DNA of 64,000 bases from a virus (taxonomy: Duplodnaviria > Heunggongvirae > Uroviricota > Caudoviricetes), in the IMG/VR virus record IMGVR_UViG_3300010352_001127; one strand, given 5' to 3'. Position numbers and translations under genes: made by a program. Each line of letters starts with the position of its first letter. Position 1 is the first letter of the stretch. The notes under the pieces are model-generated. The model did not search any database. It was not told the DNA's origin and saw only the letters and a program-made list of their open reading frames with translations. Below are positions 16,739 through 63,310 of the stretch, one piece after another.

Positions 16739-16739
16739 A

Positions 16740-17105
16740 TTATTCTAATCTAATAACACCACTATCAACTTCAAATGTTTTCTTTTCTACCAGAGTGTCT
16801 GGCAAAACAAAAGTTTTTCCATCCTGTAAAACCATAACAGTTCCTTTCTTTGGAAAATGAACAGGATTTTTGCATGTTTCGCTATGGAATAAAAAGGAAT
16901 TAAATGCTGGTTTTAATGAAAGACGTCCATTGGTTTTCAAATAACCCATGTATTCGTGCCCTTCAATTTCATAAACATATAAGGTGATCCCATTCACGAC
17001 AACATGTCTTTTAGCATTCATTTCTTTATCAATATCAACTTTCTGTTTACAACCAGTAAACAGAAAAAGACACATTATTACTAATAATCCTAAAAATTTT
17101 TTCAT
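16740..17105 (-). CDS. Lipoprotein (signal peptide + lipobox LFTGC)
   Basis: MKKFLGLLVIMCLFLFTGCKQK N-terminus. Confidence 0.5.
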   Translation of the reverse strand: MKKFLGLLVIMCLFLFTGCKQKVDIDKEMNAKRHVVVNGITLYVYEIEGHEYMGYLKTNGRLSLKPAFNSFLFHSETCKNPVHFPKKGTVMVLQDGKTFVLPDTLVEKKTFEVDSGVIRLE

Positions 17106-17125
17106 TTTACAAATATATTAATTTT

Positions 17126-18106: not shown

Positions 18107-18942
18107 TCAAATATTTTTTTTATATTTTTGAAGTTGTTATTTATAATCAGATTATAATCATAATATTTCTTGGATTCATTCATTTTAATTTCATTAATAT
18201 TTCTTTTCTTATTCCACAAATAACTTGATTTTATTTCAAAGACTATGTTTGTATTTTTTATTCTATAGTCTATATAATAATTATGTTCTTTTCCGCTATC
18301 ATCAAAATAACTTATACGAGGTCCTCTTTCAATCAAATCAAATTTACCGATGGATTCAACAAATTTTAAAAATTTTAATTCATAACTGCTTTGATAATCT
18401 ATGCCATTATATTGTTTTATTCTTATTCTTCCCCATCCACTATTAGGTTTTCTTCTCCCTTCTTTAAAAGCTTTAATGGCTGCATCACTCATTCTTTTTT
18501 TAATATCATCAGATAGTTTAGTCCCCTTTCTTTTTTCTGCCATTTTTATCCATCCTTGTTTTTCTTTTATTTTTTGTTTAGAAGATTCCCAAGTAAAAGG
18601 GTTTCCGTTCTCATTCAACCATTTTTTAAGCCCTATTTTAGCATTATTGTTTGGTTTTCCAAAATTTCCGTTTCTATCTCCTTTATTTTGACATTTGGTA
18701 CAAAAATGTTCATTTTTATCTGGTTTTAGATCTCTTATTCTTCTTTCGAATATTACACCACAATCATCACATTTTACTTTTATAAATTTTATTCTATAAT
18801 CTCTTTTTGATTTTAGTAATGACCAATGAACTAAAAAAGGTTCGTTTATATTTGGTCTATAACCGAGTGTTTTTTTCCATCTGTCGGGTTGAGTGTAATG
18901 TGTTAAGACAACTTCAACGTTTTCATATTCTTTTATATACAT
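18103..18942 (-). CDS. Freestanding homing-endonuclease-like protein: N-terminal Zn-ribbon (KVKCDDCG…CTKCQ) + C-terminal PD-(D/E)XK-like domain
   Basis: The N-terminal CxxC…CxxC segment is paralogous to those of 42922..44574 and 46691..47581. C-terminal …IDYRIKNTNIVFEIKSSY… resembles a D…E.K nuclease core. ATGA overlap with nadR. Confidence 0.4.
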   Translation of the reverse strand: MYIKEYENVEVVLTHYTQPDRWKKTLGYRPNINEPFLVHWSLLKSKRDYRIKFIKVKCDDCGVIFERRIRDLKPDKNEHFCTKCQNKGDRNGNFGKPNNNAKIGLKKWLNENGNPFTWESSKQKIKEKQGWIKMAEKRKGTKLSDDIKKRMSDAAIKAFKEGRRKPNSGWGRIRIKQYNGIDYQSSYELKFLKFVESIGKFDLIERGPRISYFDDSGKEHNYYIDYRIKNTNIVFEIKSSYLWNKKRNINEIKMNESKKYYDYNLIINNNFKNIKKIFE

Positions 18943-18956
18943 AAGAACTTTTTATT

Positions 18957-18971
18957 CTTATATATTAAAAA
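18957..18971 (-). promoter_or_regulatory. Promoter-like box CTTATATATTAAAAA upstream of 18103..18942
   Basis: Motif family member, 15 nt upstream of the ATG. Confidence 0.45.
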
Positions 18972-19008
18972 CTAAAAATCACTTTTAACCTTTTCATTGT
19001 GGTCATTT

Positions 19009-19434
19009 TCATTCACTCCAATCTTCTTCACCATACGGATCCAAATCATTAATTATTCTTTTATTGAGTTTATATTCTCTTTTATGTTCTCTCTTTTTTT
19101 CTTTCCATTCACTATAACTTCCACAATGATGATGTCTTATCATATTACATATATCTGGGAAACTTCTAACTACTTTAGTTGGCAAACTATATATATTTAT
19201 ATCTGATGATGCACAATTATCTAATAGATGTAATATATAATCAATAACATAATCTTCATTTTGATCTTTATAATGTTTTAAAAATTTTATAATGTCATCG
19301 ACATTCTTCCAGCTTAACTCGATTTTTTTTAAATCTAATATAGCTTGTGCGGCTTCTTCGCGTGTTAAATCTGTTCGATAACCATATTTATCGAAATCTT
19401 TAAAATCTTCAAATTTAGATAAATTACTTATCAT
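19009..19434 (-). CDS. Hypothetical protein ending in the DPYGEEDW motif
   Basis: C-terminus …NDLDPYGEEDWSE* (motif at 19018-19041). Confidence 0.45.
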   Translation of the reverse strand: MISNLSKFEDFKDFDKYGYRTDLTREEAAQAILDLKKIELSWKNVDDIIKFLKHYKDQNEDYVIDYILHLLDNCASSDINIYSLPTKVVRSFPDICNMIRHHHCGSYSEWKEKKREHKREYKLNKRIINDLDPYGEEDWSE

Positions 19435-19437
19435 ATG

Positions 19438-19758
19438 TCATTTAACTTTTTTAGTTTCATAAATATAACACTCATACCATCTTGAAGATACTCCATATTC
19501 ACATAATACATTTTCAAGAGATTGTTTGGGGAATTTAGTAAAAGATCCTTTTATTTCCAAGAACCAAGAATCTGGCACATATTTTTCTTTTATCCATTCT
19601 CTTGGATCTTTTTCCCATCCATTTAATATATTATACCAACCTTCACTTTTATATTTATTTGTGAGTTCTCCAACGAGAATTTCTTCGCCATTATTATGTT
19701 TAAGAATTATAATATCTTCAATTTCAATTTCGTCAAAACTTACTTTTTTCAATTTCAT
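19438..19758 (-). CDS. Hypothetical protein
   Basis: ORF in an operon context, with 4-nt overlaps on both sides. Confidence 0.4.
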   Translation of the reverse strand: MKLKKVSFDEIEIEDIIILKHNNGEEILVGELTNKYKSEGWYNILNGWEKDPREWIKEKYVPDSWFLEIKGSFTKFPKQSLENVLCEYGVSSRWYECYIYETKKVK

Positions 19759-20324
19759 TGTTGTTTTTTATATATTTTTGTCCAATTAATTAACCCGTAG
19801 ACGGCTACAAAAGTTATCACAATATATTCTAAAGATACTAAATATATTCCTTTTGAATAGAATAACCACACGCTTAACATATCCAATAATATCCATAGAA
19901 ACCATCCATATAAATATTTTTTAGATAGAAATACCACAGCAAATATACTCATTGTTGTGACAATAGCATCTAGTAAAGCAAATTGTGGTTGAAAGAATCC
20001 CAATACATAACCTCCTAATAAACAAAGAATTAGTATAACAATTCCAGTTATTATTACATTTTTTAATGAAGATATTTTTATCTTTTTACCTATATCTCTT
20101 CCCCAATATGTCCAACCGTATATTGAAACAATCGTAAAAAAGACTTGAAGCGCAACTTGTCCAAACAATTGATTTTTTAAAAAAAGTATAAAGAAAAATA
20201 TCTGTCCGATTATACCAACAGGCCAATTCCAAATTTTGTTTCTAGCAGCCAAAACTACTGCAGCAAAAGAAAACAATGTTCCAAATAATTCTAAATAAGA
20301 AAGTGTATATCCTAGTAATACCAT
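19755..20324 (-). CDS. pnuC: PnuC-family nicotinamide riboside transporter
   Basis: 189-aa polytopic membrane protein with Trp-rich TM helices typical of PnuC. Genomic association with nadR and pncA. Confidence 0.6.
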   Translation of the reverse strand: MVLLGYTLSYLELFGTLFSFAAVVLAARNKIWNWPVGIIGQIFFFILFLKNQLFGQVALQVFFTIVSIYGWTYWGRDIGKKIKISSLKNVIITGIVILILCLLGGYVLGFFQPQFALLDAIVTTMSIFAVVFLSKKYLYGWFLWILLDMLSVWLFYSKGIYLVSLEYIVITFVAVYGLINWTKIYKKQQ

Positions 20325-20779
20325 TATTTATTTATCTTAATATACTTACCAATAATAGCTGATTTATCCAACACATGTCCATCAATTTCTTTCAAAAGTT
20401 CGGCTTTAGTATATCCTTCTTTGTTCAAAAAACAATCTAAAGCAAATATCTTAAAGAAATATCTATGAACACCATTTGGAGGGCATGGACCTTTATAATC
20501 AAATTGTTTATAGTCATTTTTTCCAAATAAAATTGGTGGTTGTGAATCTCCTTTTGTAAAGTGTTCATTAAACATAGTTGTAGTTGGTGGAATATTATAT
20601 ACAATCCAATGTACCCAATCTCCAACTGGAGCGTCGGGATCATCAACTAATAAAGCTAGACTAACAGTCGCTTTTGGAAAACCACTCCATTCTAGCTGAG
20701 GTGATACATTTACTCCCTCGCAAGTAAATTTGGAAGGAATAAATTCACCATGTCTAAACGCGTTACTTCTTATTTCCAT
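20324..20779 (-). CDS. PEBP-family protein (YbhB/YbcL-like)
   Basis: LVDDPDAP…W.HW and GPCPP.G.HRY motifs of bacterial phosphatidylethanolamine-binding proteins. Confidence 0.7.
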   Translation of the reverse strand: MEIRSNAFRHGEFIPSKFTCEGVNVSPQLEWSGFPKATVSLALLVDDPDAPVGDWVHWIVYNIPPTTTMFNEHFTKGDSQPPILFGKNDYKQFDYKGPCPPNGVHRYFFKIFALDCFLNKEGYTKAELLKEIDGHVLDKSAIIGKYIKINK

Positions 20780-22847
20780 CTTTTTCTTTTAACATTATTT
20801 TTAATTGAGCAAAACAATTAAATGGTACTCCTACAAAATAAAGTGGTTGATCTCCACTCCAATTTAATTGACCGCTCGCGAAATATTTTTGATTTGTTAT
20901 ATTATTAAAATAGATATTAAAATCTATCCAGTTCCAACTAACACCCAATTTTCCATTTAAAGTGTAATAAGAATCAATAGTTTCGGCTAAATCCGTCCCC
21001 AACCATTTTGTATATCCGATGATACTTCCATCTTGATATCTACAAGATAAACCTACTACAAACCATTTATATTTATAATGACCTTCTATGTTACCTATCC
21101 ATTTTGGAGATAATATTGGTTTATTTATTTGATTATTAGATTGTTTTATACCACAATCATTATACGAACCATTTACACCAATTCCTAAACCAAAATCCCA
21201 TTTGTATTTGAAATCTGCTTCAATTCCTCTTCTATAACTCTGTTTTACGTTATCGTGTAATGGAACTCCACTCATACCTATTTTACCATTTAAAACAATT
21301 TCATTACTAAAATTCATATGGAAAAAATTGAAATTTATATAAAAATTTTTTTCTACTACACGAATACCAAGTTCATTATCTCGCGATTGTTCGGAATTAA
21401 GATTGTTATAAACAGCGTTACCAAGAGTATCACATGGTAAGTAGTTATACCCATTTAATACATCATTTCTTGATGGTTCACGATTATTTACACCATAACT
21501 ATAATAAAACACAGTTCTATTTAAATTGTAATCTATTCCTAAATCATAATTTATAAAATTCCAATGTAAATCTGGCATAACAACATTATAATGAGGAGTA
21601 AAGTTCTCATCATAAGAAACATCGCCTTTATATTTAAAATCTGTATATCTATATTGAACATCGCCAAAAAGATTCAGATCTTTCCAAACATTATATTTAA
21701 CTTTCAAATAACTACTTATTTCATTTCTATATCCAGTGTTTGTGTATTGATATCCATAAATATCATTATTCCCTATATGTTCTCTATCATATGTAAAACC
21801 GTGAGTTCCTAAATCGAAATAAAATCCTTTTATATTTTTTGAAAAATTTAAATATCCACCATACCAATTAGATTTAAAAGTATATTTGTCTATACCATAA
21901 TTAATATTATTCTGTAAGAAATTCTGTAAATCAAAAGTATAATAGCCGTGAAGATAATTATAATAAAGAGCATAATTCAATTTCGTTTCTTTATTGAAAT
22001 TTATTATGTGGTGAAATTGAACGTGTGTCTGAGCAAAATTATCTTGTTCTTTGTCTGTCGCACCGTTTGTTTTCCTATCTTCTCGAACTTTTTCCAACGG
22101 AACGCCCAACCACGCTAACTGATTATTTTGGGCTCCTATAAAAGATACTATTTTGAATGTATGTTTTTTTACATTAAAATATGAATTTAAAAATAAACTC
22201 TGTCCTTTATTACTGGAATGATATTTATATCCTTTTGTTTCTATATCTGATAATTGAAAGTAATAACCGCCACGTTTAAAATTTTGATCGACCTCTGCTC
22301 CAATATTAAAACTATTGAAAGATCCGTATCCAAATTTAGCCGTCGCTTTATCATAAGTAGGGAAATGGGAATCAAAATTTAAACCACCTCCAAAACAAGA
22401 TGATCCATTTTTTGTTAAACTATTACCTCTTTGTATTTGAATCAAATCTAATGAATTAAAGAAATCTGGATAGTTTGAAAAATACAATCCTTGATCTTCG
22501 GGCTCATTCATTGGCACTCCGTTTAGAGTGAAATTAATACGAGTTTGATCAATTCCTCTCATACGAATATAAGAATATCCATAGGGGCTACCAGCATCAG
22601 AATAAGATGTGATAGAGGGTGTTGTAATAAGAATATCAGAAGGCTCTTGCCCGTGATATTTAAAATTTATTTCGTTCTTATTTAAATTTGTAAAAGTAAT
22701 AGGAGTAAGATGATTCGCCTTGTATGGCGCTGTAATATTAACCTCTTTTAATTCTATCGTGTCCTTACCAATATGATAAATAGTGTCTTGACTATAACCC
22801 CCGATAGCGAAGATAAATAGAATAATAATAAATAATGTTCTTTTCAT
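20763..22847 (-). CDS. TonB-dependent outer-membrane receptor (signal peptide, plug, ~22-strand barrel; 694 aa)
   Basis: N-terminal signal peptide plus TonB-box/plug region (LKEVNITA…, SYIRMRGIDQTRINFTLNGVPMNEPEDQGLYFSNYPDF). Long Tyr/Asn/Gly-rich beta-barrel body. Overlaps the PEBP gene by 17 nt (operon). Confidence 0.65.
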   Translation of the reverse strand: MKRTLFIIILFIFAIGGYSQDTIYHIGKDTIELKEVNITAPYKANHLTPITFTNLNKNEINFKYHGQEPSDILITTPSITSYSDAGSPYGYSYIRMRGIDQTRINFTLNGVPMNEPEDQGLYFSNYPDFFNSLDLIQIQRGNSLTKNGSSCFGGGLNFDSHFPTYDKATAKFGYGSFNSFNIGAEVDQNFKRGGYYFQLSDIETKGYKYHSSNKGQSLFLNSYFNVKKHTFKIVSFIGAQNNQLAWLGVPLEKVREDRKTNGATDKEQDNFAQTHVQFHHIINFNKETKLNYALYYNYLHGYYTFDLQNFLQNNINYGIDKYTFKSNWYGGYLNFSKNIKGFYFDLGTHGFTYDREHIGNNDIYGYQYTNTGYRNEISSYLKVKYNVWKDLNLFGDVQYRYTDFKYKGDVSYDENFTPHYNVVMPDLHWNFINYDLGIDYNLNRTVFYYSYGVNNREPSRNDVLNGYNYLPCDTLGNAVYNNLNSEQSRDNELGIRVVEKNFYINFNFFHMNFSNEIVLNGKIGMSGVPLHDNVKQSYRRGIEADFKYKWDFGLGIGVNGSYNDCGIKQSNNQINKPILSPKWIGNIEGHYKYKWFVVGLSCRYQDGSIIGYTKWLGTDLAETIDSYYTLNGKLGVSWNWIDFNIYFNNITNQKYFASGQLNWSGDQPLYFVGVPFNCFAQLKIMLKEKDGNKK

Positions 22848-23802: not shown

Positions 23803-25257
23803 TTAAGCTGCAGGCGTAGCTGGTGCTGGAGGTTGATCTTCTTTAAATCCGTAAGTCACCTCAGTCTTCGTTTTACCAGGAGTTTTACCTGGCACTTTCT
23901 TAGAATCTATAGCATATAAAAGATCTATGTCATAGTAATCCTCACCAACTTTACCTATAGTTTTATTTAACTCAAATCTGTGTGTGACATCAGGAGGTGT
24001 TCGTTTATTCTTATCGTGATAAACATCAACAGCATATTTTTTCCAAATCCATGTATTTAAAGGTTTTGAGAAAACCGAATCTTCTTTAGCATACCATTTC
24101 TTTGTATATTCACACCAAACGATGTGTGGGGATCGTGGGAAAGCATATTCATTATTGTAAGAAAGTCTTATCACGTCTTCTGTGGCACAATAAGCATTAT
24201 CATACCTACACCAAGTAGCTCTACTTTCGGGAATATCTTCATCGTTATAACCATCGTGAACAATTGGATCATAATCATCGTCGTCTCTCCATTGTTCATA
24301 ATGCCCTTCGGTGTCAGTTAAAGTATAATATTCTCCCTCAAGATCATCGACACTCGATAGTTTCTTTTGTTCATGATAAAAATATCTTAAAGTATCCACA
24401 TAAGGAAATAAATCAAAGTTCGTATTTTCTAAAATAACTTCCATCTCAATATCCTGAGATCCTTTACCAGGAACAATTATATAAGTTCCACCATATTTTT
24501 GTTCGTCTTTACAATACCATCCTTCACGTTTAGCATAATTGGTGAATAATATTTCATCTTCGTCTTTATTAGTATAAACTCTATCCATAAAAATAGCTCC
24601 TTCCGGTTTTGATAATTTCCAAACTAACGCTCTTCCTCTAATCTTATTACCATCGCTATTTTTAAGTATGAACAATTTACATTGTTTTGGATTGTTTCTA
24701 TAGATGTTTAAAAATCTTCCACAATCCTCGTGTGACATACAAGAAGCTCCCATAGTACCGCGTAGACTATCATAATTTCTTGCATCATACCAATAAACAA
24801 TGTTGTCTCCATCAACCAATTCAAAATTACCAGATTCTTCAGTTTCTTTTACTATGGTTTTAAACTTCTTCACGAACTTTTGGACAGAATCCTCACTAAA
24901 TTTTGGAAGATTTTGAATGATGAATCTTCCAATTTTTTGAGTAGTTCTCATTTTAGAAGTCCAAAATTCTTCCTTGGGCTTACCTTCTTTTTTGAGTCTT
25001 TCTATTCTAGAAGATTGTAAAAAAGAAACACTCTCACCGTCATCTTCTACATCAACGTAAGAGAAATCAAAGAGACGATCGACTTCTTCGAGTTCTAAAA
25101 TACGTTTTGATATATTACTTTGTTTTATGTTCTGAATAGAAATTAAAACATCTTTAAATCTATCAGATAATATCATTTTTTGATCGGGCTGCTTTACTTT
25201 TTTCTCTCCTTTTTCGGCAGCTTCTTTCAAATAATCAAAATATTTATTAATACTCAT
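23803..25257 (-). CDS. Family-X paralog A (unknown function; conserved R…SC(M/A)…NPD…GRA..W…FMDRVY…YPYVDTL core) with C-terminal aromatic WCxYD repeats
   Basis: Core aligns with 27098.., 28342.., 29344.., 40330.. and 41404... C-terminal repeats TWCRYDNAYCATEDVIRL / VWCEYTKKWYAKEDSVFS / TWIWKKYAVDVY. Confidence 0.55.
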   Translation of the reverse strand: MSINKYFDYLKEAAEKGEKKVKQPDQKMILSDRFKDVLISIQNIKQSNISKRILELEEVDRLFDFSYVDVEDDGESVSFLQSSRIERLKKEGKPKEEFWTSKMRTTQKIGRFIIQNLPKFSEDSVQKFVKKFKTIVKETEESGNFELVDGDNIVYWYDARNYDSLRGTMGASCMSHEDCGRFLNIYRNNPKQCKLFILKNSDGNKIRGRALVWKLSKPEGAIFMDRVYTNKDEDEILFTNYAKREGWYCKDEQKYGGTYIIVPGKGSQDIEMEVILENTNFDLFPYVDTLRYFYHEQKKLSSVDDLEGEYYTLTDTEGHYEQWRDDDDYDPIVHDGYNDEDIPESRATWCRYDNAYCATEDVIRLSYNNEYAFPRSPHIVWCEYTKKWYAKEDSVFSKPLNTWIWKKYAVDVYHDKNKRTPPDVTHRFELNKTIGKVGEDYYDIDLLYAIDSKKVPGKTPGKTKTEVTYGFKEDQPPAPATPAA

Positions 25258-35452: not shown

Positions 35453-35803
35453 TTATTCTAATTTTCCTTTATTATACCATTTAACTATCGTTTTTTCTTC
35501 TTCAACTTGTTTGTATCCCATTCTTCGCTTAAAATCCTCATGCCATATTTCACAATATTCATCAAGAGTTACTTCTTTTCCTCTATAATACCATTTAGTA
35601 TTAATAAGATCATTATTATCAAGATCTTTATAATATTCTTCTAATTTTTTCAATCTACTCAAATCTTTTACAAAAACTTTACGCCATTGGGGATCGCTTA
35701 CAATAACCGCAGATCCTGGTCCTTTTGATGTTACAACTCCAGGAAAAGATATGGTTACTCCTTTATAAAATACTTTATCTCCTATTTCAAAATTACTTTT
35801 CAT
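35453..35803 (-). CDS. Hypothetical protein
   Basis: ORF; overlaps the ppk2 end by 11 nt. Confidence 0.4.
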   Translation of the reverse strand: MKSNFEIGDKVFYKGVTISFPGVVTSKGPGSAVIVSDPQWRKVFVKDLSRLKKLEEYYKDLDNNDLINTKWYYRGKEVTLDEYCEIWHEDFKRRMGYKQVEEEKTIVKWYNKGKLE

Positions 35804-40329: not shown

Positions 40330-41385
40330 TTATTCTTGTTTTATTTCCACTTCTTTAGATTCAGCTTTAGTTTTTTCTTCGTCTTCTCTTTCTGTAACAT
40401 ATTTTCTGGGGCATTCTGCATGATAGGTATTATTCCATTGATAATTTCTATAAGGCTGTGGTAATCTTGTATAGTTGTCTGTTAATAAATTATGCTCGAA
40501 ATTAACATACATCGAATCAAACGGACAATAATTCAGGAATCTGGTTTCTAATGATATTAAGAGGGTAGAGTAGTTTGGAGCGGTTGATTTTTCAATAGCG
40601 TTATATTTATTTCTTAAATATTCTCTTATCATAATATCATATTTTCCCCCCACTCCATAAGCATTACCCCACACTGTATGAACTTCGCCCTTTTTCCAAT
40701 CTCCAACGGTTTCTACTTGTGGACCTTGTTGGAACGATCTACGTGCTACTATAACATCATTATCCCAAACAACAGCGACTCCACAATTATCTGGATTTTT
40801 TGTATAAATGTGAAATTGTGCTAAAGTTGGTTCTGGATAATTTCCAAACGCATTCTCGGCTTGTTTGAAATTAGCACAACTATAACCAAAATTTTTTATA
40901 AGTTCGTTGTTGTAATTGTAACCTCTGAGAAGTTCTTCGCCTCTATATTCTACAACTCGAGCGGATTTGTTTTTTATTTCAATGTTCCATTTATTTATAA
41001 AAGACTCTAAATCAACTGGTTTAATATAACTGTTTAAATAAGCTTCATTATACACTTCACGTAAAACTTTTGTTGATTTCATTTTAACTCTGCGCGGTGA
41101 TGTCCATAAATTTCCTTCGCTGAAAAAACGCGGTTTAATAAAAGAGATATTTCCTTCAGCGTCAACATCAAAATAATCTGGAGGTTCTTTTGTTGAATAT
41201 TTTCTTTCAATACCTTCTTTTAATCTCAAATAAAATTCAGCCACTTTATATTCGTTTTTCATTGGCATTAAAATTTTCAAAAGTTTATTGGATATTTGAA
41301 AGAATATCTTTTCATCTGGATCTTTTGGAGGAAGATCAGATTGAATTTGCTCATTAAGAAAATCTAAATAGTGTTTTATTATCAT
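40330..41385 (-). CDS. Family-X paralog E (divergent subfamily: YSCANF…KNPDNCGV…GRRSFQQG…YCPFDSM)
   Basis: Co-linear with 41404.. (about 55% identity by eye) and more distantly with A-D (R…SC, NPD, GR, YP.D.M blocks). Confidence 0.5.
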   Translation of the reverse strand: MIIKHYLDFLNEQIQSDLPPKDPDEKIFFQISNKLLKILMPMKNEYKVAEFYLRLKEGIERKYSTKEPPDYFDVDAEGNISFIKPRFFSEGNLWTSPRRVKMKSTKVLREVYNEAYLNSYIKPVDLESFINKWNIEIKNKSARVVEYRGEELLRGYNYNNELIKNFGYSCANFKQAENAFGNYPEPTLAQFHIYTKNPDNCGVAVVWDNDVIVARRSFQQGPQVETVGDWKKGEVHTVWGNAYGVGGKYDIMIREYLRNKYNAIEKSTAPNYSTLLISLETRFLNYCPFDSMYVNFEHNLLTDNYTRLPQPYRNYQWNNTYHAECPRKYVTEREDEEKTKAESKEVEIKQE

Positions 41386-41403: not shown

Positions 41404-42432
41404 TTACCCCATACTTAATCCTCTTGTAAAATAATATGGATCTCTTTCAAAATTTAAATCTGGTTCTGGTTTTGGTTCGTTTAGATGTTTTTCTTCTTCT
41501 ATTCTTTTTTTAACAAGTTTTGTAGGACAACTTGCTCCATAAGCTCTTGTCCATTTATGATTTCCTCCTCCACCATCGGATAATAAATTATCTTCAAAAC
41601 ACACTTCCATTCCATCGAAAGGAGGGTATGTAAGAAATCTGGTTTCAAATTTAATAATAAAAGATCCATCTTTTGTATGCATTCCATTGGCGTTGTATTC
41701 TTCCCTTAAATAATCTCTTATCATAACGTCATACACACCACCACATCCATAATGATTTCCATAAACAGTATAATATTGTCCTTTTTTATAATATCCTCTA
41801 TTTTCAACTTGAATTCCTTGTTGATAAGTTCTTCTTCCCATTATTTTTCCTTTATCGACAACTACCACAACTCCACAATTATCTGGATTTTTAACATAAA
41901 CATCATAAATATTGGTGTTTCTACCTTTATACCAATTAGCGCAAGAAAGACCGAAATTAGAAGATAACTCTCCTGTTACACCATAAGCTCTAAGAACATC
42001 TTCACCTCTTAGATCTTCTATGTGAGGTTTGTTATCTTCTTTTCTGTGTAATATCGACCACTTATTTACAAAAGCTTCGATATCAGTTTGCTTTATCTGA
42101 CTATTTATATAAGACTCGTTGTATATGTCGCGTAATATTTTTGAAGCTTTAGATTTTTGTCTTCTTTGTGAAGAAAATTCATTTCCTTTAAATTCTTCAA
42201 AATATCTAGATTTTAAAAAACTTATATTTCCTTCTGTGTCAACATCTAAAAAATCAACTGGATCTGTCACCAAATATTTCCTATCTACTCCTTCTTTCAA
42301 GCTAATAAGAAGCATGGCTACTTTATATTCATCCATCATTTTTGTGAGATCTTTCACTAAATTTTGAGATAAATTAAAGACTCTTCTATCTTCAACTTGC
42401 TCATTTATAAATCTATCAAATCTAGTTATCAT
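41404..42432 (-). CDS. Family-X paralog F (divergent subfamily)
   Basis: LSCANW…KNPDNCGVVVVV…GRRTYQQG…YPPFDGM; C-terminus …ERDPYYF. Confidence 0.5.
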   Translation of the reverse strand: MITRFDRFINEQVEDRRVFNLSQNLVKDLTKMMDEYKVAMLLISLKEGVDRKYLVTDPVDFLDVDTEGNISFLKSRYFEEFKGNEFSSQRRQKSKASKILRDIYNESYINSQIKQTDIEAFVNKWSILHRKEDNKPHIEDLRGEDVLRAYGVTGELSSNFGLSCANWYKGRNTNIYDVYVKNPDNCGVVVVVDKGKIMGRRTYQQGIQVENRGYYKKGQYYTVYGNHYGCGGVYDVMIRDYLREEYNANGMHTKDGSFIIKFETRFLTYPPFDGMEVCFEDNLLSDGGGGNHKWTRAYGASCPTKLVKKRIEEEKHLNEPKPEPDLNFERDPYYFTRGLSMG

Positions 42433-45344: not shown

Positions 45345-45788
45345 TTAATTTTTATTATCTAAATATTTTTTAATTACAAAATCAAATAAATCTTTGTGTT
45401 TATTAAAATAATCATGTATTGGAATTAATAGAATATCTAGAACAATACGATATATATTGTCATCGTCTATTTTTTTAATGTTACCTTTTTTTATATTATA
45501 AGAAGGTCTGAATTCGAAATCCGATATCATATCCCACTCTCCGATTGTTCCAAAATAAACATATTCATTATCTCGTATTTTTAAATAAATTTCAAAAGAT
45601 GCTGATGTTAGAACAATTCGCGTTTTAGAAGTTTTTTTTACATATAAAGAGTTATCTAATTCTTTAAAATCAATTTCATCCCAGTCTTCCTCGCCATAAG
45701 GATCTAATGGATTATATGCGATAATTCGTTTTTTATTTCCAATAAATTTCAATTCTTCTGATATAACAAATTCTTCAAAAGTTACCAT
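45345..45788 (-). CDS. Hypothetical protein with an N-terminal DPYGEEDW motif
   Basis: …AYNPLDPYGEEDWDEIDF… (motif 45681-45704). Confidence 0.45.
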   Translation of the reverse strand: MVTFEEFVISEELKFIGNKKRIIAYNPLDPYGEEDWDEIDFKELDNSLYVKKTSKTRIVLTSASFEIYLKIRDNEYVYFGTIGEWDMISDFEFRPSYNIKKGNIKKIDDDNIYRIVLDILLIPIHDYFNKHKDLFDFVIKKYLDNKN

Positions 45789-46053: not shown

Positions 46054-46112
46054 CAACTTTATATATTAAATTTTGAAAAATTTTTTTTAATATATAAAAC
46101 TAAAACTCGTAA

Positions 46113-46712
46113 ATGAAAATGATAAGATTTTCTGACTACATAAAAGAAGCAGCAAACATAAAAAGCAACGACGGGATACTTGTTATAGTTGATGTTCAAA
46201 AACAATTTGATAAGTTTACTCCACAGAATTTTGAAGGAAATATTTCAAAATATTGCAAAGAATTTCCAAAAGATGATAACTCGGGCAAAGGAGTCTATCA
46301 AATATGGGACGCTAACAAAGCTCAAAATTTTAGTTACAACTTCCCAAACACTTTACAAGTTATTAAAAAAAATTATGGAACTAAATTTGATAATAGAATA
46401 AGGAAAATAGCAGAAAATTTATCCAAAAAATATCCAAATGCTAAAGAAGGACAACAATTCAAATTAAAAGATAGCAATTCATTTTTGGTTAGAGTTAACA
46501 ACAATCACAAATGGTTTTATGTCAACGAAGATTTATATAATCTTTATTTGAAATTAAAAGGAAAAACTATTATATTGGTTGGTGGAGCCTCGGAAGAATG
46601 TCTCTCAGATTTATATGTCTCCATGAAATCCTTCGGGATTAATCCAATCTACAACCACGATTATATTTATAGTGCTCAAACCAACGATAATCAGGTAGCT
46701 GCCCCCAAATAA
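46113..46712 (+). CDS. Hypothetical protein
   Basis: ORF preceded by TTAATATATAAAAC at 46096-46109. Confidence 0.4.
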   Translation: MKMIRFSDYIKEAANIKSNDGILVIVDVQKQFDKFTPQNFEGNISKYCKEFPKDDNSGKGVYQIWDANKAQNFSYNFPNTLQVIKKNYGTKFDNRIRKIAENLSKKYPNAKEGQQFKLKDSNSFLVRVNNNHKWFYVNEDLYNLYLKLKGKTIILVGGASEECLSDLYVSMKSFGINPIYNHDYIYSAQTNDNQVAAPK

Positions 46713-47816: not shown

Positions 47817-48452
47817 TTACTGGATTGGCATCATCATTGTCATGTTTGTTCCCTGCCCCATCATATAATTTGGAAGCTGTCCATCCCATTTATTAATCCA
47901 TTCGAGAGTAATAATCTTTGGATTTTTATTAATAGCATCTCCCTTGATCTGAAGAGCTTTAGCTTCACCTTCGGCTGTCTGAATGACAATTTCCTTATCA
48001 ATCTTAGCCTGAATTAGGAGTTCCGACTTTTGTTTGGTCACTTCAATAAGAGTGAGAGCTTTCTGTTCCTGAACCTTTTTATTCTTGATTTCCTCTTCGT
48101 ATTTTGGATCGTAATAAACTTCACGAATGTCTATCTGTTCAAGAATGATACGCCAAGATGCCAATTCTTGCTTCATTTTGGCAAGAACCTTATCCTGAAT
48201 TTCCTTACGTTTCATAGAATAAGTTTGAATAGGAGTATACTCAGAAACAGTCAAAGCGAGACAAGATTTCAGTTTAGCTCTAATAACATTCTCTTCCAAC
48301 CAAAGATAACGACTCGATTCATTTCCATCTTGGGGAGTTACGTTCTGATAAATCCAGGGAGCTTGATTAGCATCGATCTTCCATGATGCAGAAATGTCAA
48401 ATCCCATTTTAATACCTTCTGATGTTGGAGCCCAAATAGCATCGTCATTCAT
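47817..48452 (-). CDS. SPFH/band-7 (prohibitin/HflC-like) domain protein without a TM anchor
   Basis: C-terminal …QTAEGEAKALQIKGDAINKNPKIITLEWINKWDG… typical of the SPFH C-terminal helical region; ATGA overlap with 48449... Confidence 0.5.
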   Translation of the reverse strand: MNDDAIWAPTSEGIKMGFDISASWKIDANQAPWIYQNVTPQDGNESSRYLWLEENVIRAKLKSCLALTVSEYTPIQTYSMKRKEIQDKVLAKMKQELASWRIILEQIDIREVYYDPKYEEEIKNKKVQEQKALTLIEVTKQKSELLIQAKIDKEIVIQTAEGEAKALQIKGDAINKNPKIITLEWINKWDGQLPNYMMGQGTNMTMMMPIQ

Positions 48453-49489
48453 TGTGAATAAATTTTGTCATAAAATCTTGTTATAATATCAATCAATTTT
48501 TTAATTTTTCCTTCTTTTCTTAATTTCTTAAAAACAAGATTTTCTATTGAAAATTCTCCTTCCTCGGTAAGACCTTCTTTTCTAGATTTCATTATTTTAG
48601 CTTTCAAATCTCTAGATCCATTATAATATTCATCGCTTTCCTCGGGAGTGAGATTCATTTTGGATAATTTTTCAAATTTATTTATGTCATAAACTCTAGC
48701 TTCATATTTAATATTAACATCTTTGGTATCTACATCAGGTGGATTATAAACGGGTTTGATTATCCATTTATCATTCATCAATGAATATAAACCAGATGCG
48801 CAATGCTCTTCTTTTTCATCTTGTATATAAAGCTCAACATCGTGACCTTTTATAGTTATATTGTGTCTTAAATTCCATATAAATCTTTGACCATCAATAG
48901 CCTTTTTAACAAGCTCGGTATCTTCATTAACATCAGAGTAATCTATAACTACATGAACATCTATGTCAGATTCATCATTATAATTATAATTAGCCATCGA
49001 CCCTGTTAAATAAATATCTTTTATCTCTGTTTCTAATTCAACATCATTGTAGAAATCTTTGGCTATTTTTATTAATTTGATTTTGATTCTTTCAATTATA
49101 ACTCCACTTTCCCAAATGTCAGGACATAAAGTTTTTTTATATGGTATGCGTCTTTCTAGAACTTGGTCGTTTTTTCTTTTACACATTAAATCTATGGTTC
49201 TATAATTACGGGTATTGCCATTATCGAATCTAACATCCCATTCAAATGCTTCGGGCCATGTTCTCTTTTTTGGTTTATTTAAGATAAATCCAGCTCTTCC
49301 GACTAATCCAGCGTTTATTCCACCTCTATTAGCATAAAAACCTTCCGGTCTTAATCTTATCTCTTCACCTTGTTGAAATTTATAATCGTCAGGAGCATTT
49401 ATCCAAATATTATCGTAATCCCATTCTTCTTCACCGTAAGGATCGATTTCTGATGTGTTTTCTTTTATGAATTTACCGTATTTCAACAT
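48449..49489 (-). CDS. Pol-beta-superfamily nucleotidyltransferase-domain protein with an N-terminal DPYGEEEW motif
   Basis: LTGSMANYNYNDESDIDVHVVID matches GS…(9-13)…DxD…h; N-terminal …EIDPYGEEEWDYDNIW (49421-49444). Confidence 0.5.
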   Translation of the reverse strand: MLKYGKFIKENTSEIDPYGEEEWDYDNIWINAPDDYKFQQGEEIRLRPEGFYANRGGINAGLVGRAGFILNKPKKRTWPEAFEWDVRFDNGNTRNYRTIDLMCKRKNDQVLERRIPYKKTLCPDIWESGVIIERIKIKLIKIAKDFYNDVELETEIKDIYLTGSMANYNYNDESDIDVHVVIDYSDVNEDTELVKKAIDGQRFIWNLRHNITIKGHDVELYIQDEKEEHCASGLYSLMNDKWIIKPVYNPPDVDTKDVNIKYEARVYDINKFEKLSKMNLTPEESDEYYNGSRDLKAKIMKSRKEGLTEEGEFSIENLVFKKLRKEGKIKKLIDIITRFYDKIYSQ

Positions 49490-49545
49490 GAGTCTATATA
49501 TAAAAAACAGATATTAAAAAAAATAAAAACCAATTTGATTTTATT

Positions 49546-51483: not shown

Positions 51484-51600
51484 TCATTGGAATTGAATAT
51501 ATGCTCCAGCTCCCAAAACAATTGGAACAGCGGCTGTAAGAAGAGATTTCCTACTTATTTCTTCATTAACAAATTCGTCGTATTTTGAAAGATTATCCAT
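51484..51600 (-). CDS. Possible 38-aa membrane peptide (MDNLSKYDEFVNEEISRKSLLTAAVPIVLGAGAYIQFQ), TAATG-coupled to 51600..52631
   Basis: ATG shares one nt with the upstream stop; one TM-like segment. Not in the ORF track. Confidence 0.25.
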   Translation of the reverse strand: MDNLSKYDEFVNEEISRKSLLTAAVPIVLGAGAYIQFQ

Positions 51601-52631
51601 TAGAATCCTCCTATTTCTTCTTTAAATTTAGCTGGATCTTTTCCTTGGGCTGTTGCTATAGCATCTCTTACTTTAGCTAAAGCATCTTTATCTGGAAGAT
51701 TTACTATATTTCTTAAAAGTTTGGATAAATTTTGTGTGTTTGTAGTAGCTTTTGTGTTTTTTGCTACAGCGTCAAATGGATCTGCTCCACCTGCTCCTGC
51801 TGCTGGCGGTTTAACTTCTTTCAATTTCTTCAACGAATAACCATATAGATTGTTTGTCATCCATTCATTTCCACTTTGCTTTAGTTTATTAACATCTCCT
51901 TGTGGAGCTCCACCTTGATTTGTCGTGGTTGGATCGGCCGTTGTAGTTTTAGTTGTGTCTGTTTTTGGAGGATTTGGAGTATTCGGTTGAGCGGGATTAC
52001 GATTTGGCTCGTTCGCAGCCAGTTGTTCAAAAAGTTTACTAGAAAATTTTTGAGTGTAATTATCAAAAGTTGCCGCTGTTGTTGGAGCGGTTTCAACTTT
52101 ACTCACATCAACATTGGCTTTCAAATATTTGTCTAATTCATCGTTTTTATAAGCCTGTGTTTGTTTATTTATTTCCATTATTTTCGCATTTACAGCGTTT
52201 AAAGCGTTCTTTGTGAAATCTTCGGCTTTATCAAAATTAAACATTTGCTCTTCGGGTTGCCCCTTGAATATAGTTTTTGCCATTAAAGCTGGTGTTTGAT
52301 ATTTATTAGACATTTCCTGCAATTCAACAAAAACAACAGACGCGTTGTCGTGAAGAACTTTTCTAAGACCTAGTGGTCCTGTTACTCCCTGCATCTGTTG
52401 AGCGGCTATAGCTTGTCTATCCTTTGTGGATTGCTCGAATATTCTAACAGAATCGTTCCAATCTTTTGAAGCATCCAACTTTTTTGTAAAATTTGCTACA
52501 GCGTCAGCTAATTTTTTATCAATTTTTCCAAATAATTTGCTAAATAAATTTTTAACAGCACCCCATAATAATTCTTCATTCAAAGCGTCTTTGAATTCTT
52601 CAAAATGTCTAATATTTTTTAATTCTTCCAT
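51600..52631 (-). CDS. Hypothetical protein with a Pro/Thr/Asn-rich low-complexity linker
   Basis: ORF; the linker reads NEPNRNPAQPNTPNPPKTDTTKTTTADPTTTNQ. Confidence 0.4.
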   Translation of the reverse strand: MEELKNIRHFEEFKDALNEELLWGAVKNLFSKLFGKIDKKLADAVANFTKKLDASKDWNDSVRIFEQSTKDRQAIAAQQMQGVTGPLGLRKVLHDNASVVFVELQEMSNKYQTPALMAKTIFKGQPEEQMFNFDKAEDFTKNALNAVNAKIMEINKQTQAYKNDELDKYLKANVDVSKVETAPTTAATFDNYTQKFSSKLFEQLAANEPNRNPAQPNTPNPPKTDTTKTTTADPTTTNQGGAPQGDVNKLKQSGNEWMTNNLYGYSLKKLKEVKPPAAGAGGADPFDAVAKNTKATTNTQNLSKLLRNIVNLPDKDALAKVRDAIATAQGKDPAKFKEEIGGF

Positions 52632-52641: not shown

Positions 52642-52776
52642 TTATTTTTCTTTTGCTTCTTCTTCATCTTTTTCGAGTTTTTCTTTCTCCTCTTTAGATT
52701 TGGTTTTCTTAGTTTTTTTATATATTACTTTGCCTTTTGAATAGGTAAATCCTTCAAACGTTTTTAAGTGTTTCAT
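52642..52776 (-). CDS. Possible 44-aa Lys/Glu-rich protein (MKHLKTFEGFTYSKGKVIYKK…), not in the ORF track
   Basis: Promoter-like box ACTATATATTAATT at about 52800-52814, 24 nt upstream. Stop lies 10 nt before the next ATG. Confidence 0.3.
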   Translation of the reverse strand: MKHLKTFEGFTYSKGKVIYKKTKKTKSKEEKEKLEKDEEEAKEK

Positions 52777-60657: not shown

Positions 60658-61401
60658 TTATATTTTCTTATAAGAAATTGTAAAATAGTAATCAAACTTA
60701 AATTGACTAACATCTTTTGTTTGATTATAAATTATTTTAACTGTGTCCAAATTGCTTAGATAATCTGGAGTTATTATGTTAACGTTCGGAATTCTATATT
60801 TAACACTAAAAACAGATTTATTAAAATTTGGGCGCTTTAAAGCTTGATTCTTATCGAAAATAGTAGCACTATTAACAACATCGAAATAATTCGCATAGAA
60901 TACTAATTCTGATATATTATATCTGTTTAGCATATTAACATCAATATAATTATTGATATAGGTGTCTATATTTCTTTCCACCAAATCTTCACTTCTAACA
61001 GTCTTAAACACTCTGTTTTCTTTTAATCTTAAAAATAAATATTCTCTTAATATATTTTTAGCGTTAATGATTATTATCCATTCAAAATTTAGATTCTTAT
61101 CTGAAGTAGTTTCGTTTTGACTATAAATATCAATTGAATGATTTTCATATTTAATATCATCCAACCCTCTTGTTATATTAATTTCTGGATGTAAAATATT
61201 GGTATCATAATATTGATAATGATCGTTTTGAATATTTACTTTATCAACTATTTCTGAATATTGTATAGACATATCATTAATATAAATTTGATCTTCGATA
61301 TCAATAAGTTTACTTCCAAAGAAACTTTTTATTTCTGTAGCTGAGCGAGTGCCGTTTGTTGGAACGGTTTCATATTTTCTTATTATTAAATTACTTTTCA
61401 T
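60658..61401 (-). CDS. Hypothetical protein; start revised to ATG 61401 (ATGA overlap with upstream stop; ORF-track start is TTG)
   Basis: MKSNLIIRKYETV… after the revision. Confidence 0.4.
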   Translation of the reverse strand: MKSNLIIRKYETVPTNGTRSATEIKSFFGSKLIDIEDQIYINDMSIQYSEIVDKVNIQNDHYQYYDTNILHPEINITRGLDDIKYENHSIDIYSQNETTSDKNLNFEWIIIINAKNILREYLFLRLKENRVFKTVRSEDLVERNIDTYINNYIDVNMLNRYNISELVFYANYFDVVNSATIFDKNQALKRPNFNKSVFSVKYRIPNVNIITPDYLSNLDTVKIIYNQTKDVSQFKFDYYFTISYKKI

Positions 61402-61733
61402 CTCCAAATTTCCTCTCCATAAGGATCTATATTATATTGTTCGTAATTTTTTACTAAATTCACTTTTTCGTTTGTTAATTCTACATCACCGTTATCATAA
61501 AGTGTAAATACTCCATATTGATAACTCATCCAGTCATAATTAAAAGCCATATCCTTTATCGCGTTTACATCTTTATCATGAATCTTGGGATTATTTTTTT
61601 CTAAATAATCTTTCGGATCTTTTTTTTTAGCTACAAAATATCCAACGATTTTTCTATTCGGATCTTCCCATTTCTCTTCGCTGTAAGGATCTAATTCATT
61701 AGTTTCGTTTAAAAATCTCTTCACGTGTTTCAT
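61398..61733 (-). CDS. Hypothetical protein carrying the DPY(G/S)EE.W motif at both termini
   Basis: N-terminal …NELDPYSEEKWEDP (61668-61691) and C-terminal …NIDPYGEEIWR* (61404-61427). Confidence 0.45.
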   Translation of the reverse strand: MKHVKRFLNETNELDPYSEEKWEDPNRKIVGYFVAKKKDPKDYLEKNNPKIHDKDVNAIKDMAFNYDWMSYQYGVFTLYDNGDVELTNEKVNLVKNYEQYNIDPYGEEIWR

Positions 61734-61827: not shown

Positions 61828-62865
61828 ATGAAATTTAAACTCAACGAAAATAATACCAAACTTCAATTAATAGAAGCGAATAGAGACGAGTATGCTCAAC
61901 TCAAATTAAGCCTGAGCAAGTACGTGAAAAATTATTTCTTTCAGGCTAAATACAAAATGACCAAGTGGGACGGGAAAATAGAATTCATGAAAATGGATAA
62001 GATTAACTTTGGTCTTTGGTATGAAGTTTATAAGGTTTGTAAAGAATATGGTTATCCATTTCAAATAGTTAATAAAGAGCAATTTCCGATAGATAAGAAT
62101 ATTAAAAGAGAAGAAGTTGAAAAATTTTGTTTAGAATTCTTTAAAGATCATAAGTCTAAAGAAGATATTAACAAATCATTCAATCTTTATGAACATCAAA
62201 TTGAAGCGATATATAAAATTCTAAAACATAAATATGGTTTAGTTGAAGTGGCGACAGCTGGCGGAAAGTCCCTCGTTTTCGGGACTTTAATTTTTTATTA
62301 TCTTAATAATATTAATCCAGACGCTAAATTTTTACTTATTGTCCCGAGCATTGGTCTGGTTACTCAATTTTATAATGATTTAATGGACTACAATCTTGGA
62401 TTTCATATGGAAAATAAAACCCCGTCTAATATAAAAATAGATGAGATTATGAGTGAAAGACCAAGAAAACATTTCGACGGAGAACCAAATATATATATTG
62501 GTACATATCAGAGTTTGGAGAAATGGCCAGATGAATTTTTCAAACAATTTGACGTCGTTGCAGTAGACGAATGCCTTCACCCAGACACTTTAATAGAAAC
62601 AACATCAGGAAAAAAGAAAATATGCGATATTAAAAAAGGAGAATCGGTATTTACTTTAAATGAAAAAACAGGCAATAAAGAAATAAAAGAAGTGGATTTT
62701 ATATATAGAAATATAAGTAAAAATGAGCAGATGTTTGAGTTGGAATTTGAGAATGACAATAAAATAAAAATCACTGGGAATCATCAAGTTATTTTAAAAA
62801 ATAAAAAAAGAAAAAGAGTTGATCAGTTAACGGAAGAAGATGAAATTTTTGACATCAATATATGA
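61828..62865 (+). CDS. uvsW: UvsW-type SF2 DNA helicase N-extein (to …VVAVDE, 61828-62571) fused to an N-terminal split-intein half (CLHPDTLIETTSG…ITGNHQVIL…, 62572-62865)
   Basis: WDGKIEF, GLWYEVYKVCKEYGYPF, Walker A VATAGGKSLVFG and LLIVPSIGLVTQF blocks co-linear with T4 UvsW. Intein block A (C-L-x-x-D-T-x-I) begins right after DE of motif II. Block B is TGNHQV. A stop follows 98 intein residues. Confidence 0.65.
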   Translation: MKFKLNENNTKLQLIEANRDEYAQLKLSLSKYVKNYFFQAKYKMTKWDGKIEFMKMDKINFGLWYEVYKVCKEYGYPFQIVNKEQFPIDKNIKREEVEKFCLEFFKDHKSKEDINKSFNLYEHQIEAIYKILKHKYGLVEVATAGGKSLVFGTLIFYYLNNINPDAKFLLIVPSIGLVTQFYNDLMDYNLGFHMENKTPSNIKIDEIMSERPRKHFDGEPNIYIGTYQSLEKWPDEFFKQFDVVAVDECLHPDTLIETTSGKKKICDIKKGESVFTLNEKTGNKEIKEVDFIYRNISKNEQMFELEFENDNKIKITGNHQVILKNKKRKRVDQLTEEDEIFDINI

Positions 62866-63310
62866 ATTTAATAATCAGAATGTAATCGTTCTTGATGATA
62901 ATTCCGATAAAAATGATAAGGAAGAGGTATTTAATTTTTTAAAGAAGAATGTTTTTAGATTTATGAATAGGAAAAACACTGATGAATCTATAAATAGATT
63001 TTTGAAAAAAAATAATATAGTTATAGATATAAATAGGAACTTAACATACAAAAATATATTCGATTTTCTCAATAATACTACTTACGATAATTGTCATTGT
63101 GACAATATAAATTGTGATAATGAAACTAAATTCACTGGATTTTATTCACTTAAATATTTTCCTAGTGGATATCATAAATTTTGTTCTAAAAAATGTATGA
63201 ATGAATGGTTTAGTGATAAACAAAAAGGAGAGAACAATACTTTTCATAGAATGAACAAAGACAGAATTATGAAAAATTTAAAACGTTATGAAAATAAAAA
63301 AAATATCTAA
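62840..63310 (+). CDS. Freestanding ORF between the split-intein halves (frame 2); Cys/His-rich (DNCHCDNINCDNE…GYHKFCSKKCMNEW). Possible small endonuclease/Zn-binding protein or a degenerated HEN domain
   Basis: ATG with the GGAAGAAG SD-like sequence; overlaps both flanking ORFs by ~25 nt; no clear GIY-YIG/HNH/EDxHD signature. Confidence 0.3.
   Translation: MKFLTSIYEFNNQNVIVLDDNSDKNDKEEVFNFLKKNVFRFMNRKNTDESINRFLKKNNIVIDINRNLTYKNIFDFLNNTTYDNCHCDNINCDNETKFTGFYSLKYFPSGYHKFCSKKCMNEWFSDKQKGENNTFHRMNKDRIMKNLKRYENKKNI

Follow-up and report, generated by a model that had tools for sequence, protein, structure and literature searches.

DPYGEExW, a candidate docking peptide shared by many unrelated proteins in one clade of huge phages

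Why a virus should place one short peptide on many different proteins is the question raised by a 64,000-nucleotide stretch of Caudoviricetes DNA (IMG/VR record IMGVR_UViG_3300010352_001127), which we refer to in its full length as the window. Within it, the peptide (L/I)DPY(G/S)EExW, hereafter the motif, recurs in otherwise unrelated proteins. The only nucleotide relative of the window among 50,697 phage records is LR756501/LR756503, an uncultured genome of 735,411 bp. The window is collinear with LR756501 between 417.9 and 472.4 kb, and 36 of its 59 genes have a homolog there. We infer that LR756501 is the 735-kb genome of the Mahaphage clade for which infection of Bacteroidetes has been predicted (PMC7162821). 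On the evidence described below we conclude, with a probability of roughly 0.55, that DPYGEExW is a portable and position-independent short linear motif, namely a docking or address label read by one common partner, which is specific to the clade and most likely encoded by the phage.

Six-frame translation of the window returned exactly five copies of the motif, distributed over four open reading frames (ORFs) and all on the minus strand, and no additional copy with up to one mismatch in any of the six frames. The five copies of the original prediction are thereby confirmed at their coordinates, each inside a long ORF. The copies and their carrier genes are the following:

19018..19044 (core 19018-19041), minus strand: motif L-DPYGEEDW, residues 131-139 of a 141-aa protein (DPYGEEDW at 132-139), followed by SE and the stop codon; C-terminal tail
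19009..19434, minus strand: the 141-aa carrier, an ORFan inserted relative to LR756501 synteny
45681..45707 (core 45681-45704), minus strand: motif L-DPYGEEDW, residues 28-36 of a 147-aa protein (core 29-36)
45345..45788, minus strand: the 147-aa carrier, with no family match, between a gp13-like neck gene and a small SH3-like gene
49421..49447 (core 49421-49444), minus strand: motif I-DPYGEEEW, residues 15-23 of a nucleotidyltransferase (core 16-23); N-terminal tail
48449..49489, minus strand: Pol-beta-type nucleotidyltransferase of 346 aa, composed of a 244-aa core family and an N-terminal extension of about 100 aa that bears the motif
61668..61694 (core 61668-61691), minus strand: motif L-DPYSEEKW (the G-to-S variant), residues 14-22 of a 111-aa protein (core 15-22), after the leader MKHVKRFLNETNE
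61404..61430 (core 61404-61427), minus strand: motif I-DPYGEEIW, residues 102-110 of the same 111-aa protein (core 103-110), followed by R and the stop codon; C-terminal tail
61398..61733, minus strand: the 111-aa carrier, which has one motif copy at each end; its gene separates a conserved 249-aa gene from a UvsW-like helicase gene, and the site is empty in LR756501

The expected number of matches to [LI]DPY[GS]EE.W in the six-frame translation of the window is 2.4e-6, and the degenerate DNA pattern GAYCCNTAYGGNGARGARNNNTGG matches the window four times as compared to none in 100 shuffles. When the motif is masked, no similarity is detectable among the four carriers (best BLASTP E = 1.2), which bears out their description as otherwise unrelated proteins. 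All five copies have L or I just before DPY, and the four codon strings that we compared differ at synonymous sites. Upstream of the copy at 19018..19044 lies NKRIIND, which fits the extended consensus [KR]-[IV]-[IFY]-x-x-x, and the copy at 45681..45707 is preceded by the leader MVTFEEFVISE and by the stretch KKRIIAYNP. Three of the four carriers (the 141-, 147- and 111-aa proteins) are insertions into conserved synteny, with no relatives besides a single ortholog of the 111-aa protein (P0002), the only one returned by the homolog search. In particular, the 141-aa carrier finds only itself among 5.8 billion proteins and has no homolog in LR756501, and the syntenic LR756501 site lacks the 147-aa carrier.

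The motif is also present throughout the full genome of LR756501. We detected 103 strict copies in 87 of approximately 1,000 genes (8.7%), belonging to 84 unrelated protein clusters; gene calls were crude, taken as the longest ATG-initiated ORFs with greedy removal of overlaps. Amino-acid composition predicts 1.3e-4 copies, and hence chance does not explain the recurrence of the motif, which was the first of the ways in which the original prediction could have failed. Among the LR756501 clusters, DPYGEE is the most widely shared 6-mer, occurring in 88 clusters as compared to 7 for the next unrelated 6-mer. A scan of IMG/VR with the degenerate pattern extended the collection to at least 120 loci and at least 273 copies. 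With the motif masked, their carriers amount to at least 190 complete proteins in at least 124 unrelated clusters.

Outside these viruses the motif is essentially a chance event. In 596 Gb of bacterial and archaeal genomes we found 72 single matches, compared with our own chance estimate of about 70. Apart from a Lactobacillaceae enolase paralog and from four or five small contigs of phage-like character that had been mis-binned into metagenome-assembled genomes, they are scattered among unrelated proteins. This chance-level frequency rules out that the motif mimics a motif of the host. The Lactobacillaceae protein (L130, L143-L145, L149 and other loci), which we take to be an enolase from its SIEDP motif, reads IISIE-DPYGEEDW, that is the exact motif after a beta-strand. 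Its match to the phage motif is a coincidence, and indicates that a folded protein can accommodate the peptide after a strand. A tblastn search of the 50,697 phage records matched only LR756501/LR756503, and thus returned no relative among cultured phages with proteomic data; a search of the literature did not find the motif in a phage context.

To place the boundary of its distribution we relied on 68 loci with the capsid gene. All of the 14 copies detected there lie in loci, about 205 kb in total, with a capsid protein that shares at least 78% identity with that of LR756501. The clade with the motif comprises, besides LR756501, contigs such as IMGVR_UViG_3300025858_000010 and 3300042261_000976/000762. 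In the sister clade, with capsids 46-77% identical and with contigs of 640 kb (IMGVR_UViG_3300037067_007156) and 676 kb (3300035208_009193) among the loci, there are no copies in about 800 kb. An analogous motif of different sequence was not seen either in these 800 kb around the capsid genes, which cover head regions only. Since the motif is confined to one clade, its reader should be confined to the same clade, and is most simply a phage protein.

The sequence of the motif is nearly fixed. We counted 261 exact copies as compared to about 55 variants with one mismatch, so that seven of the eight positions are near-invariant and the seventh residue is free. The commonest substitutions are G to S, N, D or E and Y to F or L. 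The Y-to-F change is found in around 5-10% of the copies, and this tolerance suggests that the aromatic ring matters more than the modifiable hydroxyl. The flanks are conserved in three contexts. The first is the extended consensus [KR]-[IV]-[FY]-[ST]-x-[EL]-D-P-Y-G-E-E-x-W-[DEN]-[DEN], represented as a 17-mer peptide by KRVFSELDPYGEEDWEE; the second is a long K/R/E-rich helix ending in ...RLKHMDI-DPYGEExW; the third is an N-terminal leader, MIKKFKIFEQLNxxDI-DPYGEExW.

At the DNA level, the 103 copies of LR756501 comprise 81 distinct 24-mers that make use of all synonymous codons, always in frame within ORFs and on either strand, with a mean pairwise identity of 83%. Conservation at the level of the peptide rather than of a DNA repeat, which had been proposed from the five window copies, therefore holds for the whole genome. 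As judged from these sequence comparisons, selection is shown to act on the peptide, and strongly. Two codons are over-used in the LR756501 motif, CCT (66% compared with 35% genome-wide) and TAC (74% compared with 36%). This excess reflects either common descent of a cassette or accuracy-driven codon choice at critical residues.

Where the motif sits in the protein varies widely. For 102 copies of LR756501, the position is N-terminal (among the first 45 residues) in 21 cases, C-terminal in 41 and internal in 40. The C-terminal copies are followed by zero to four mostly acidic residues and then by the stop codon, and the internal ones are located at domain junctions and in inter-domain linkers. 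The description of the motif as terminal thus stands for the five window copies and does not extend to the clade, where around 40% of the copies are internal. Most carriers (80 out of 88 in LR756501) have a single copy. Several proteins have instead tandem copies spaced by 14-26 residues. A 1,179-aa protein formed by a deaminase, three small barrels and a CCA-adding enzyme has four copies, and a 673-aa protein is built of six units, each composed of an SH3-like barrel, a helix and the motif.

Comparisons between homologs indicate that the motif is a module. The nucleotidyltransferase has 1,418 homologs, mostly composed of the 244-aa core without the motif, and both phrog_36119 and the Pfam families Polbeta/NTP_transf_2 cover only residues 114-344 of the window protein. 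Nearly all N-terminally extended members have one to three copies directly upstream of the core, and one of them (P0014) is simply 'MKDV-DPYGEEDW' plus the core. The ortholog in LR756501 is 80% identical, retains the copy before 'DYD(D/N)IW' and has two more. The nucleotidyltransferase is the only window carrier with an LR756501 ortholog, and the motif is not missing from it but kept at the same place, so that absence from orthologs, the second way in which the original prediction could have failed, is not borne out either. P0002, the ortholog of the 111-aa protein, retains the N-terminal copy as I-DPYGEEIW and lacks the C-terminal one. Cores with or without the motif, the copy missing from P0002 and the inserted carriers all imply that the motif is gained and lost independently of protein folds. 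It is especially common on young accessory genes.

AlphaFold2 models place the motif outside any fold. In the window nucleotidyltransferase, residues 1-34, which include the leader and the motif, have a predicted local distance difference test (pLDDT) score of 31-36 and no secondary structure, compared with more than 85 in the catalytic core. A second model, of a protein with two barrel-helix-motif units followed by a core (P0005), shows a confident first barrel and confident helices, and pLDDT lower than 50 at both motifs. The motif is therefore predicted to be an exposed and flexible segment. An SH3-like signature follows the motif at 14 times the background frequency, and we considered the SH3-like barrel as an intramolecular receptor. 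Such docking within one protein is unsupported, as both P0005 motifs remain unstructured in the model and only six of 24 barrel proteins carry the motif.

Pfam identifies few of the carriers. Leucine-rich repeat (LRR) proteins account for 21 out of 150, and the other recognized carriers are the nucleotidyltransferase, the fusion of deaminase and CCA-adding enzyme, PRTase-like proteins, a TPM phosphatase and a DnaJ-zinc-finger protein. The last of these is 697 aa long with a copy at residue 123, and the same protein is found in LR756501 at 7454-9517. Next to the DnaJ-zinc-finger carrier (L201:8428-12418) lies a 622-aa Hsp70/DnaK-like protein, named by eye from its N-terminus MNKNKCVGIDLGTTNS. 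Membrane proteins, as predicted with a simple hydropathy scan, are 10 of the 87 LR756501 carriers and 93 of the other 913 genes, and their motif lies on K/R-rich terminal tails.

Overall, the motif shows the general features of a short linear motif: seven fixed residues, a location at termini and in linkers, pLDDT lower than 50 in two models, unrelated carriers, and gain and loss independent of domains. Being accessible, portable, position-independent, sometimes multivalent, strictly conserved and restricted to one clade, it fits a docking or address label, and the binding epitope for a common partner that had been suggested at first emerges as the best reading. In such a scheme, an acidic-aromatic turn, preceded by a short hydrophobic strand (R-V-F-S), would insert Tyr and Trp into a fixed pocket of the receptor. 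The carriers, around 90 proteins, would thereby come together at one location or machine of the infected cell. A protein with two to six copies would bind with avidity or act as a scaffold, and tandem copies fit, as expected, avidity on an oligomeric partner.

Several observations weigh against a docking label. We found no receptor. Seven fixed positions out of eight are stricter than in most hub-binding motifs, and closer to the sites of site-specific proteases and modifying enzymes. The internal copies at domain boundaries look equally like cleavage sites of a polyprotein, and disorder predicted by AlphaFold2 at a short motif is weak evidence. Finally, the over-use of CCT and TAC implies that recent common descent adds to the uniformity of the copies.

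We weighed five other explanations. Among those concerning capsid targeting, proteolytic cleavage and degradation, we favor them in this order, and we exclude a DNA element. The first, which is unlikely in our view, is targeting to the capsid or to the prohead core: the motif would bind the scaffold or the capsid interior, and its carriers would be packaged and injected with the DNA. It is encouraged by the T4-type head genes of these phages, such as the gp13-like neck protein in the window and the gp23-like capsid and the S77 protease-scaffold fusion in the relatives. A precedent comes from the T4 internal proteins, which are diverse and share only a targeting peptide (PMC3012670). In addition, two short paralogs of the S77 prohead protease (161 and 168 aa), which count as weak support, and a gp23-like fragment bear the motif. 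Finally, carriers are enriched in an N-terminal leader resembling the capsid-targeting sequence (CTS) of T4.

This leader, M..[YF]..F[IL].E, is a recurrent element in its own right. It occurs on many unrelated proteins, for example as MIIKHYLDFLNE, MITRFDRFINE and MKHVKRFLNE, and is found at the start of 8-9.5% of the LR756501 genes compared with 1.8% in the interior background. Its association with DPYGEExW in LR756501 has an odds ratio of 3.6 (p = 2e-5). The leader is similar to the T4 CTS, MKTYQEFIAE, and ends in a protease-type site, (I/L)-x-E. Within the window, it is located at the 5' ends of the following ORFs:

40330-41385: leader-bearing ORF
41404-42432: leader-bearing ORF
23803-25257: leader-bearing ORF
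46113-46712: leader-bearing ORF
51600-52631: leader-bearing ORF
52642-52776: leader-bearing ORF
48449-49489: leader-bearing ORF, the nucleotidyltransferase
61398-61733: leader-bearing ORF, the 111-aa carrier
45345-45788: leader-bearing ORF, the 147-aa carrier

The S77 matches raised the possibility of a tagged prohead protease, which is ruled out, because the tagged proteins are the short paralogs and the genuine protease-scaffold has no motif. The motif is absent from both the protease-scaffold fusion and the capsid protein of the relatives. In the two paralogs, the catalytic His (GQIGFP) or Ser (FRPRA) is apparently lost, as judged by eye, and they look like pseudo-proteases. At L202:1086-2803 (IMGVR_UViG_3300042261_000916) and L201:6001-6504, a 139-aa protein, the 161-aa S77-like protein and a 237-aa gp23-like C-terminal fragment form a mini-module of motif-bearing proteins.

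The element TTAATATATA(G) occurs 10-35 nucleotides upstream of the start of 149 out of 1,000 LR756501 genes, compared with about 12 expected, including the capsid and the protease-scaffold genes. It is found also upstream of window genes, for example at 49490-49515, 46057-46080 and 18943-18967. It is comparable to the T4 late promoter TATAAATA, and is probably the late promoter of the clade. Carriers show no bias towards it (14 out of 87, compared with 135 out of 913 other genes), which disfavors capsid targeting. Capsid targeting also has to accommodate membrane proteins tagged at the background rate and tagged cytoplasmic enzymes, such as the CCA-adding enzyme fused to the deaminase and the DnaJ-like protein. 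Moreover, the packaging of 87 different proteins would lack precedent. The capsid-targeting function given as an example in the original prediction is hence not supported as it was stated.

A second alternative, which we judge improbable, is that the motif is recognized and cleaved by a sequence-specific protease. Carriers with several domains would then be polyproteins, processed at every motif, and the N-terminal leaders would be propeptides. The seven fixed positions are reminiscent of TEV/3C-type sites. The internal copies coincide exactly with domain boundaries, and the segments that they delimit are also encoded by stand-alone genes, as is the case for the nucleotidyltransferase core and the SH3-like units. 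Prohead proteases of the T4 and phiKZ type cleave at a hydrophobic-x-Glu or small-x-Glu consensus, which Y-G-E and G-E-E resemble. The SPN3US motif has been discussed (PMC10052503). However, about 40% of the copies are within zero to four residues of the stop codon and several are within four to eight residues of the start (MKDV-DPYGEEDW, MNLNEL-DPYGEENW), where a cut would remove almost nothing. Furthermore, we identified no dedicated protease, and gene fusion accounts equally well for the internal copies.

The third possibility, to which we give a small chance, dispenses with a separate receptor. The motif would be a self-contained structural element, such as a helix cap or a linker, or a homotypic 'sticker' that, together with the preceding basic helix or strand, drives multivalent self-association into a condensate. 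This would account for the regular position of the acidic motif after a K/R/E-rich helix or a basic strand, for the proteins with two to six barrel-long helix-motif units, and for the enrichment of the SH3-like signature downstream of the motif. Seven invariant residues on over 80 unrelated folds, however, are more than a purely structural cap would require, and AlphaFold2 folds the motif onto nothing. Most carriers, moreover, have only one copy, and just a quarter of the SH3-like proteins (six of 24) have the motif.

Even less credence goes to the fourth, a degron or stability tag read by an AAA+ protease of the host or of the phage (of the FtsH, Lon or ClpXP type), which would time the removal of accessory proteins. 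Exposed termini on both soluble and membrane proteins are what FtsH-type proteases handle, carriers are mostly small and fast-evolving accessory genes, and an AAA ATPase gene adjoins the nucleotidyltransferase gene in the window. On the other hand, 40% of the copies are internal, and scaffolds with four to six copies would be unexpected. Since host proteins do not use the motif, a host protease has no native reason to read it, and the restriction to one clade points to a clade-specific reader. Last, the codon diversity, the constant frame on either strand and a free seventh residue amid seven that hold effectively refute a repeated DNA element (a recombination joint, a regulatory site or a mobile mini-cassette) with incidental translation, in favor of which the excess of CCT and TAC and the 83% identity of the 24-mers could be cited.

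To better characterize the docking peptide, we compared it with known short signals. The T4 CTS of the internal proteins IPI-III and of Alt is similar in being a short address peptide on unrelated and fast-evolving accessory proteins of a T4-type phage (PMC3012670). Unlike the motif, it occurs strictly at the N-terminus, is cleaved off by the prohead protease and is limited to a handful of proteins, and its sequence is a different one. The motif is N-terminal, C-terminal or internal, occurs in multiple copies, and is spread over about 9% of the genes, including those of membrane proteins, with no evidence of cleavage or packaging. In terms of position, N-terminal copies are 21 out of 102 in LR756501 and two of the five window copies are C-terminal. 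In terms of sequence, DPYGEExW has no similarity to the CTS, and the CTS-like leader is a different element.

Cargo-loading peptides of encapsulins and encapsulation peptides of microcompartments are short, lie at the N- or C-terminus of unrelated cargo enzymes on flexible linkers, and bind the interior of the shell. The motif has an unrelated consensus (with no GSL-type C-terminus), many internal copies and membrane carriers. No encapsulin or microcompartment shell gene was seen among the neighboring genes on the window contig. Hub motifs, such as the beta-clamp motif QL[SD]LF, the PIP box and the SSB tip DDDIPF, are acidic-aromatic peptides, terminal or internal, that bring the disordered tails of many proteins to one pocket of a hub. 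Compared with the clamp and SSB motifs, DPYGEExW has another consensus, far more clients and much greater invariance, is not centered on replication and is absent from host proteins. The identified carriers are the nucleotidyltransferase, LRR proteins, the CCA-adding enzyme and membrane proteins, and not parts of the replisome.

W-acidic and Y-acidic motifs (E-[DN]-W-[DE] with an upstream aromatic residue, often in tandem in disordered regions) bind the TPR domains of kinesin light chains, and one is found also in vaccinia A36. They are eukaryotic, whereas the motif belongs to T4-like phages with a predicted Bacteroidetes host (PMC7162821), and the likeness is in sequence only. The closest match in logic is with nuclear localization signals and the peroxisomal targeting signals PTS1/PTS2, which occur at any position and in multiple copies, remain uncleaved and act on soluble as well as membrane proteins. 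Their chemistry is basic or SKL, as opposed to acidic-aromatic, and to our knowledge no compartment or import receptor has been described in these phages. Sites of viral polyproteins, such as ENLYFQ/G of tobacco etch virus (TEV), share the seven or eight near-fixed residues at domain junctions; they differ from the motif in that its many copies at extreme ends make cleavage pointless and no cognate protease was identified. In summary, the motif lacks the testable defining features of the specific known families, and is unusual for its invariance combined with its coverage of around 9% of the viral proteome.

Other features of these genomes accompany the motif. The G+C content of the window is 33%, and its genes encode a T4 gp13-like neck protein, UvsW-like and UvsY-like proteins, a TonB-dependent receptor, PnuC, a nicotinamidase, HSP20 and AAA ATPases. 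Host-like genes of metabolism and transport are clustered at 16148-22847 (minus strand), where they encode an isochorismatase/nicotinamidase, an AAA_28 (NadR-like) protein, the PnuC nicotinamide mononucleotide transporter, a protein of the PBP family and a TonB-dependent receptor that is full (Plug plus barrel). The cluster suggests salvage of nicotinamide adenine dinucleotide and remodeling of the outer membrane by the phage. An ORF of 2,913 aa (7329-16070, minus strand) has only a short match in LR756501 (113 aa), and is probably a hypervariable fiber or host-recognition protein. At 61828-63310 (plus strand), the UvsW-like helicase (UvsW_N, ResIII/DEAD) enters a Hint/intein domain from around residue 246 and its frame changes near 62840. 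The LR756501 ortholog is uninterrupted and 520 aa long, and the window helicase is probably interrupted by an intein.

Two further observations concern SH3-like proteins. A third recurrent peptide, (K/R)WY(K/N)KGKL, is shared by seven unrelated LR756501 clusters, and in the window it forms the C-terminus (...VKWYNKGKLE and stop; 35453-35500, minus strand) of the SH3-like protein encoded by ORF 35453-35803. In LR756501, at 377493-380531 (L218:27493-30531), a 1,013-aa protein with approximately seven SH3-like barrels, no motif and no Pfam match is encoded behind the putative late promoter, and may be a multivalent scaffold or a reader.

A broader picture, which we put forward tentatively, is that Mahaphage-type megaphages have an intracellular sorting or scaffolding system that was not recognized before, with the motif as its address label. 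Around 90 accessory proteins, whether soluble or bound to membranes, would be gathered into a single compartment, condensate or machine, either by a clade-specific receptor or by a multivalent scaffold (for example the proteins with repeated units of SH3-like barrel, helix and motif). The origin of this system would be recent, within the clade delimited by a capsid identity of at least 78%, and cassette shuffling would then have spread it through the accessory genome.

Huge phages have hundreds of genes of unknown function, and how their proteins are organized in the cell is almost unexplored. An invariant peptide on about 9% of the proteome of a 735-kb phage and of its relatives offers a direct experimental handle, and allows every ORF that bears it to be placed in one and the same pathway, whatever its fold. 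Being compact and portable, the tag is potentially reusable for engineering, and its sharp phylogenetic boundary amounts to a natural experiment in which the co-evolved receptor could be sought. A label for packaging would define the injected 'starter kit' of a megaphage. A label that directs proteins to a cytoplasmic hub would represent a sorting signal on the scale of a proteome, for which we know of no precedent in a bacterial virus.

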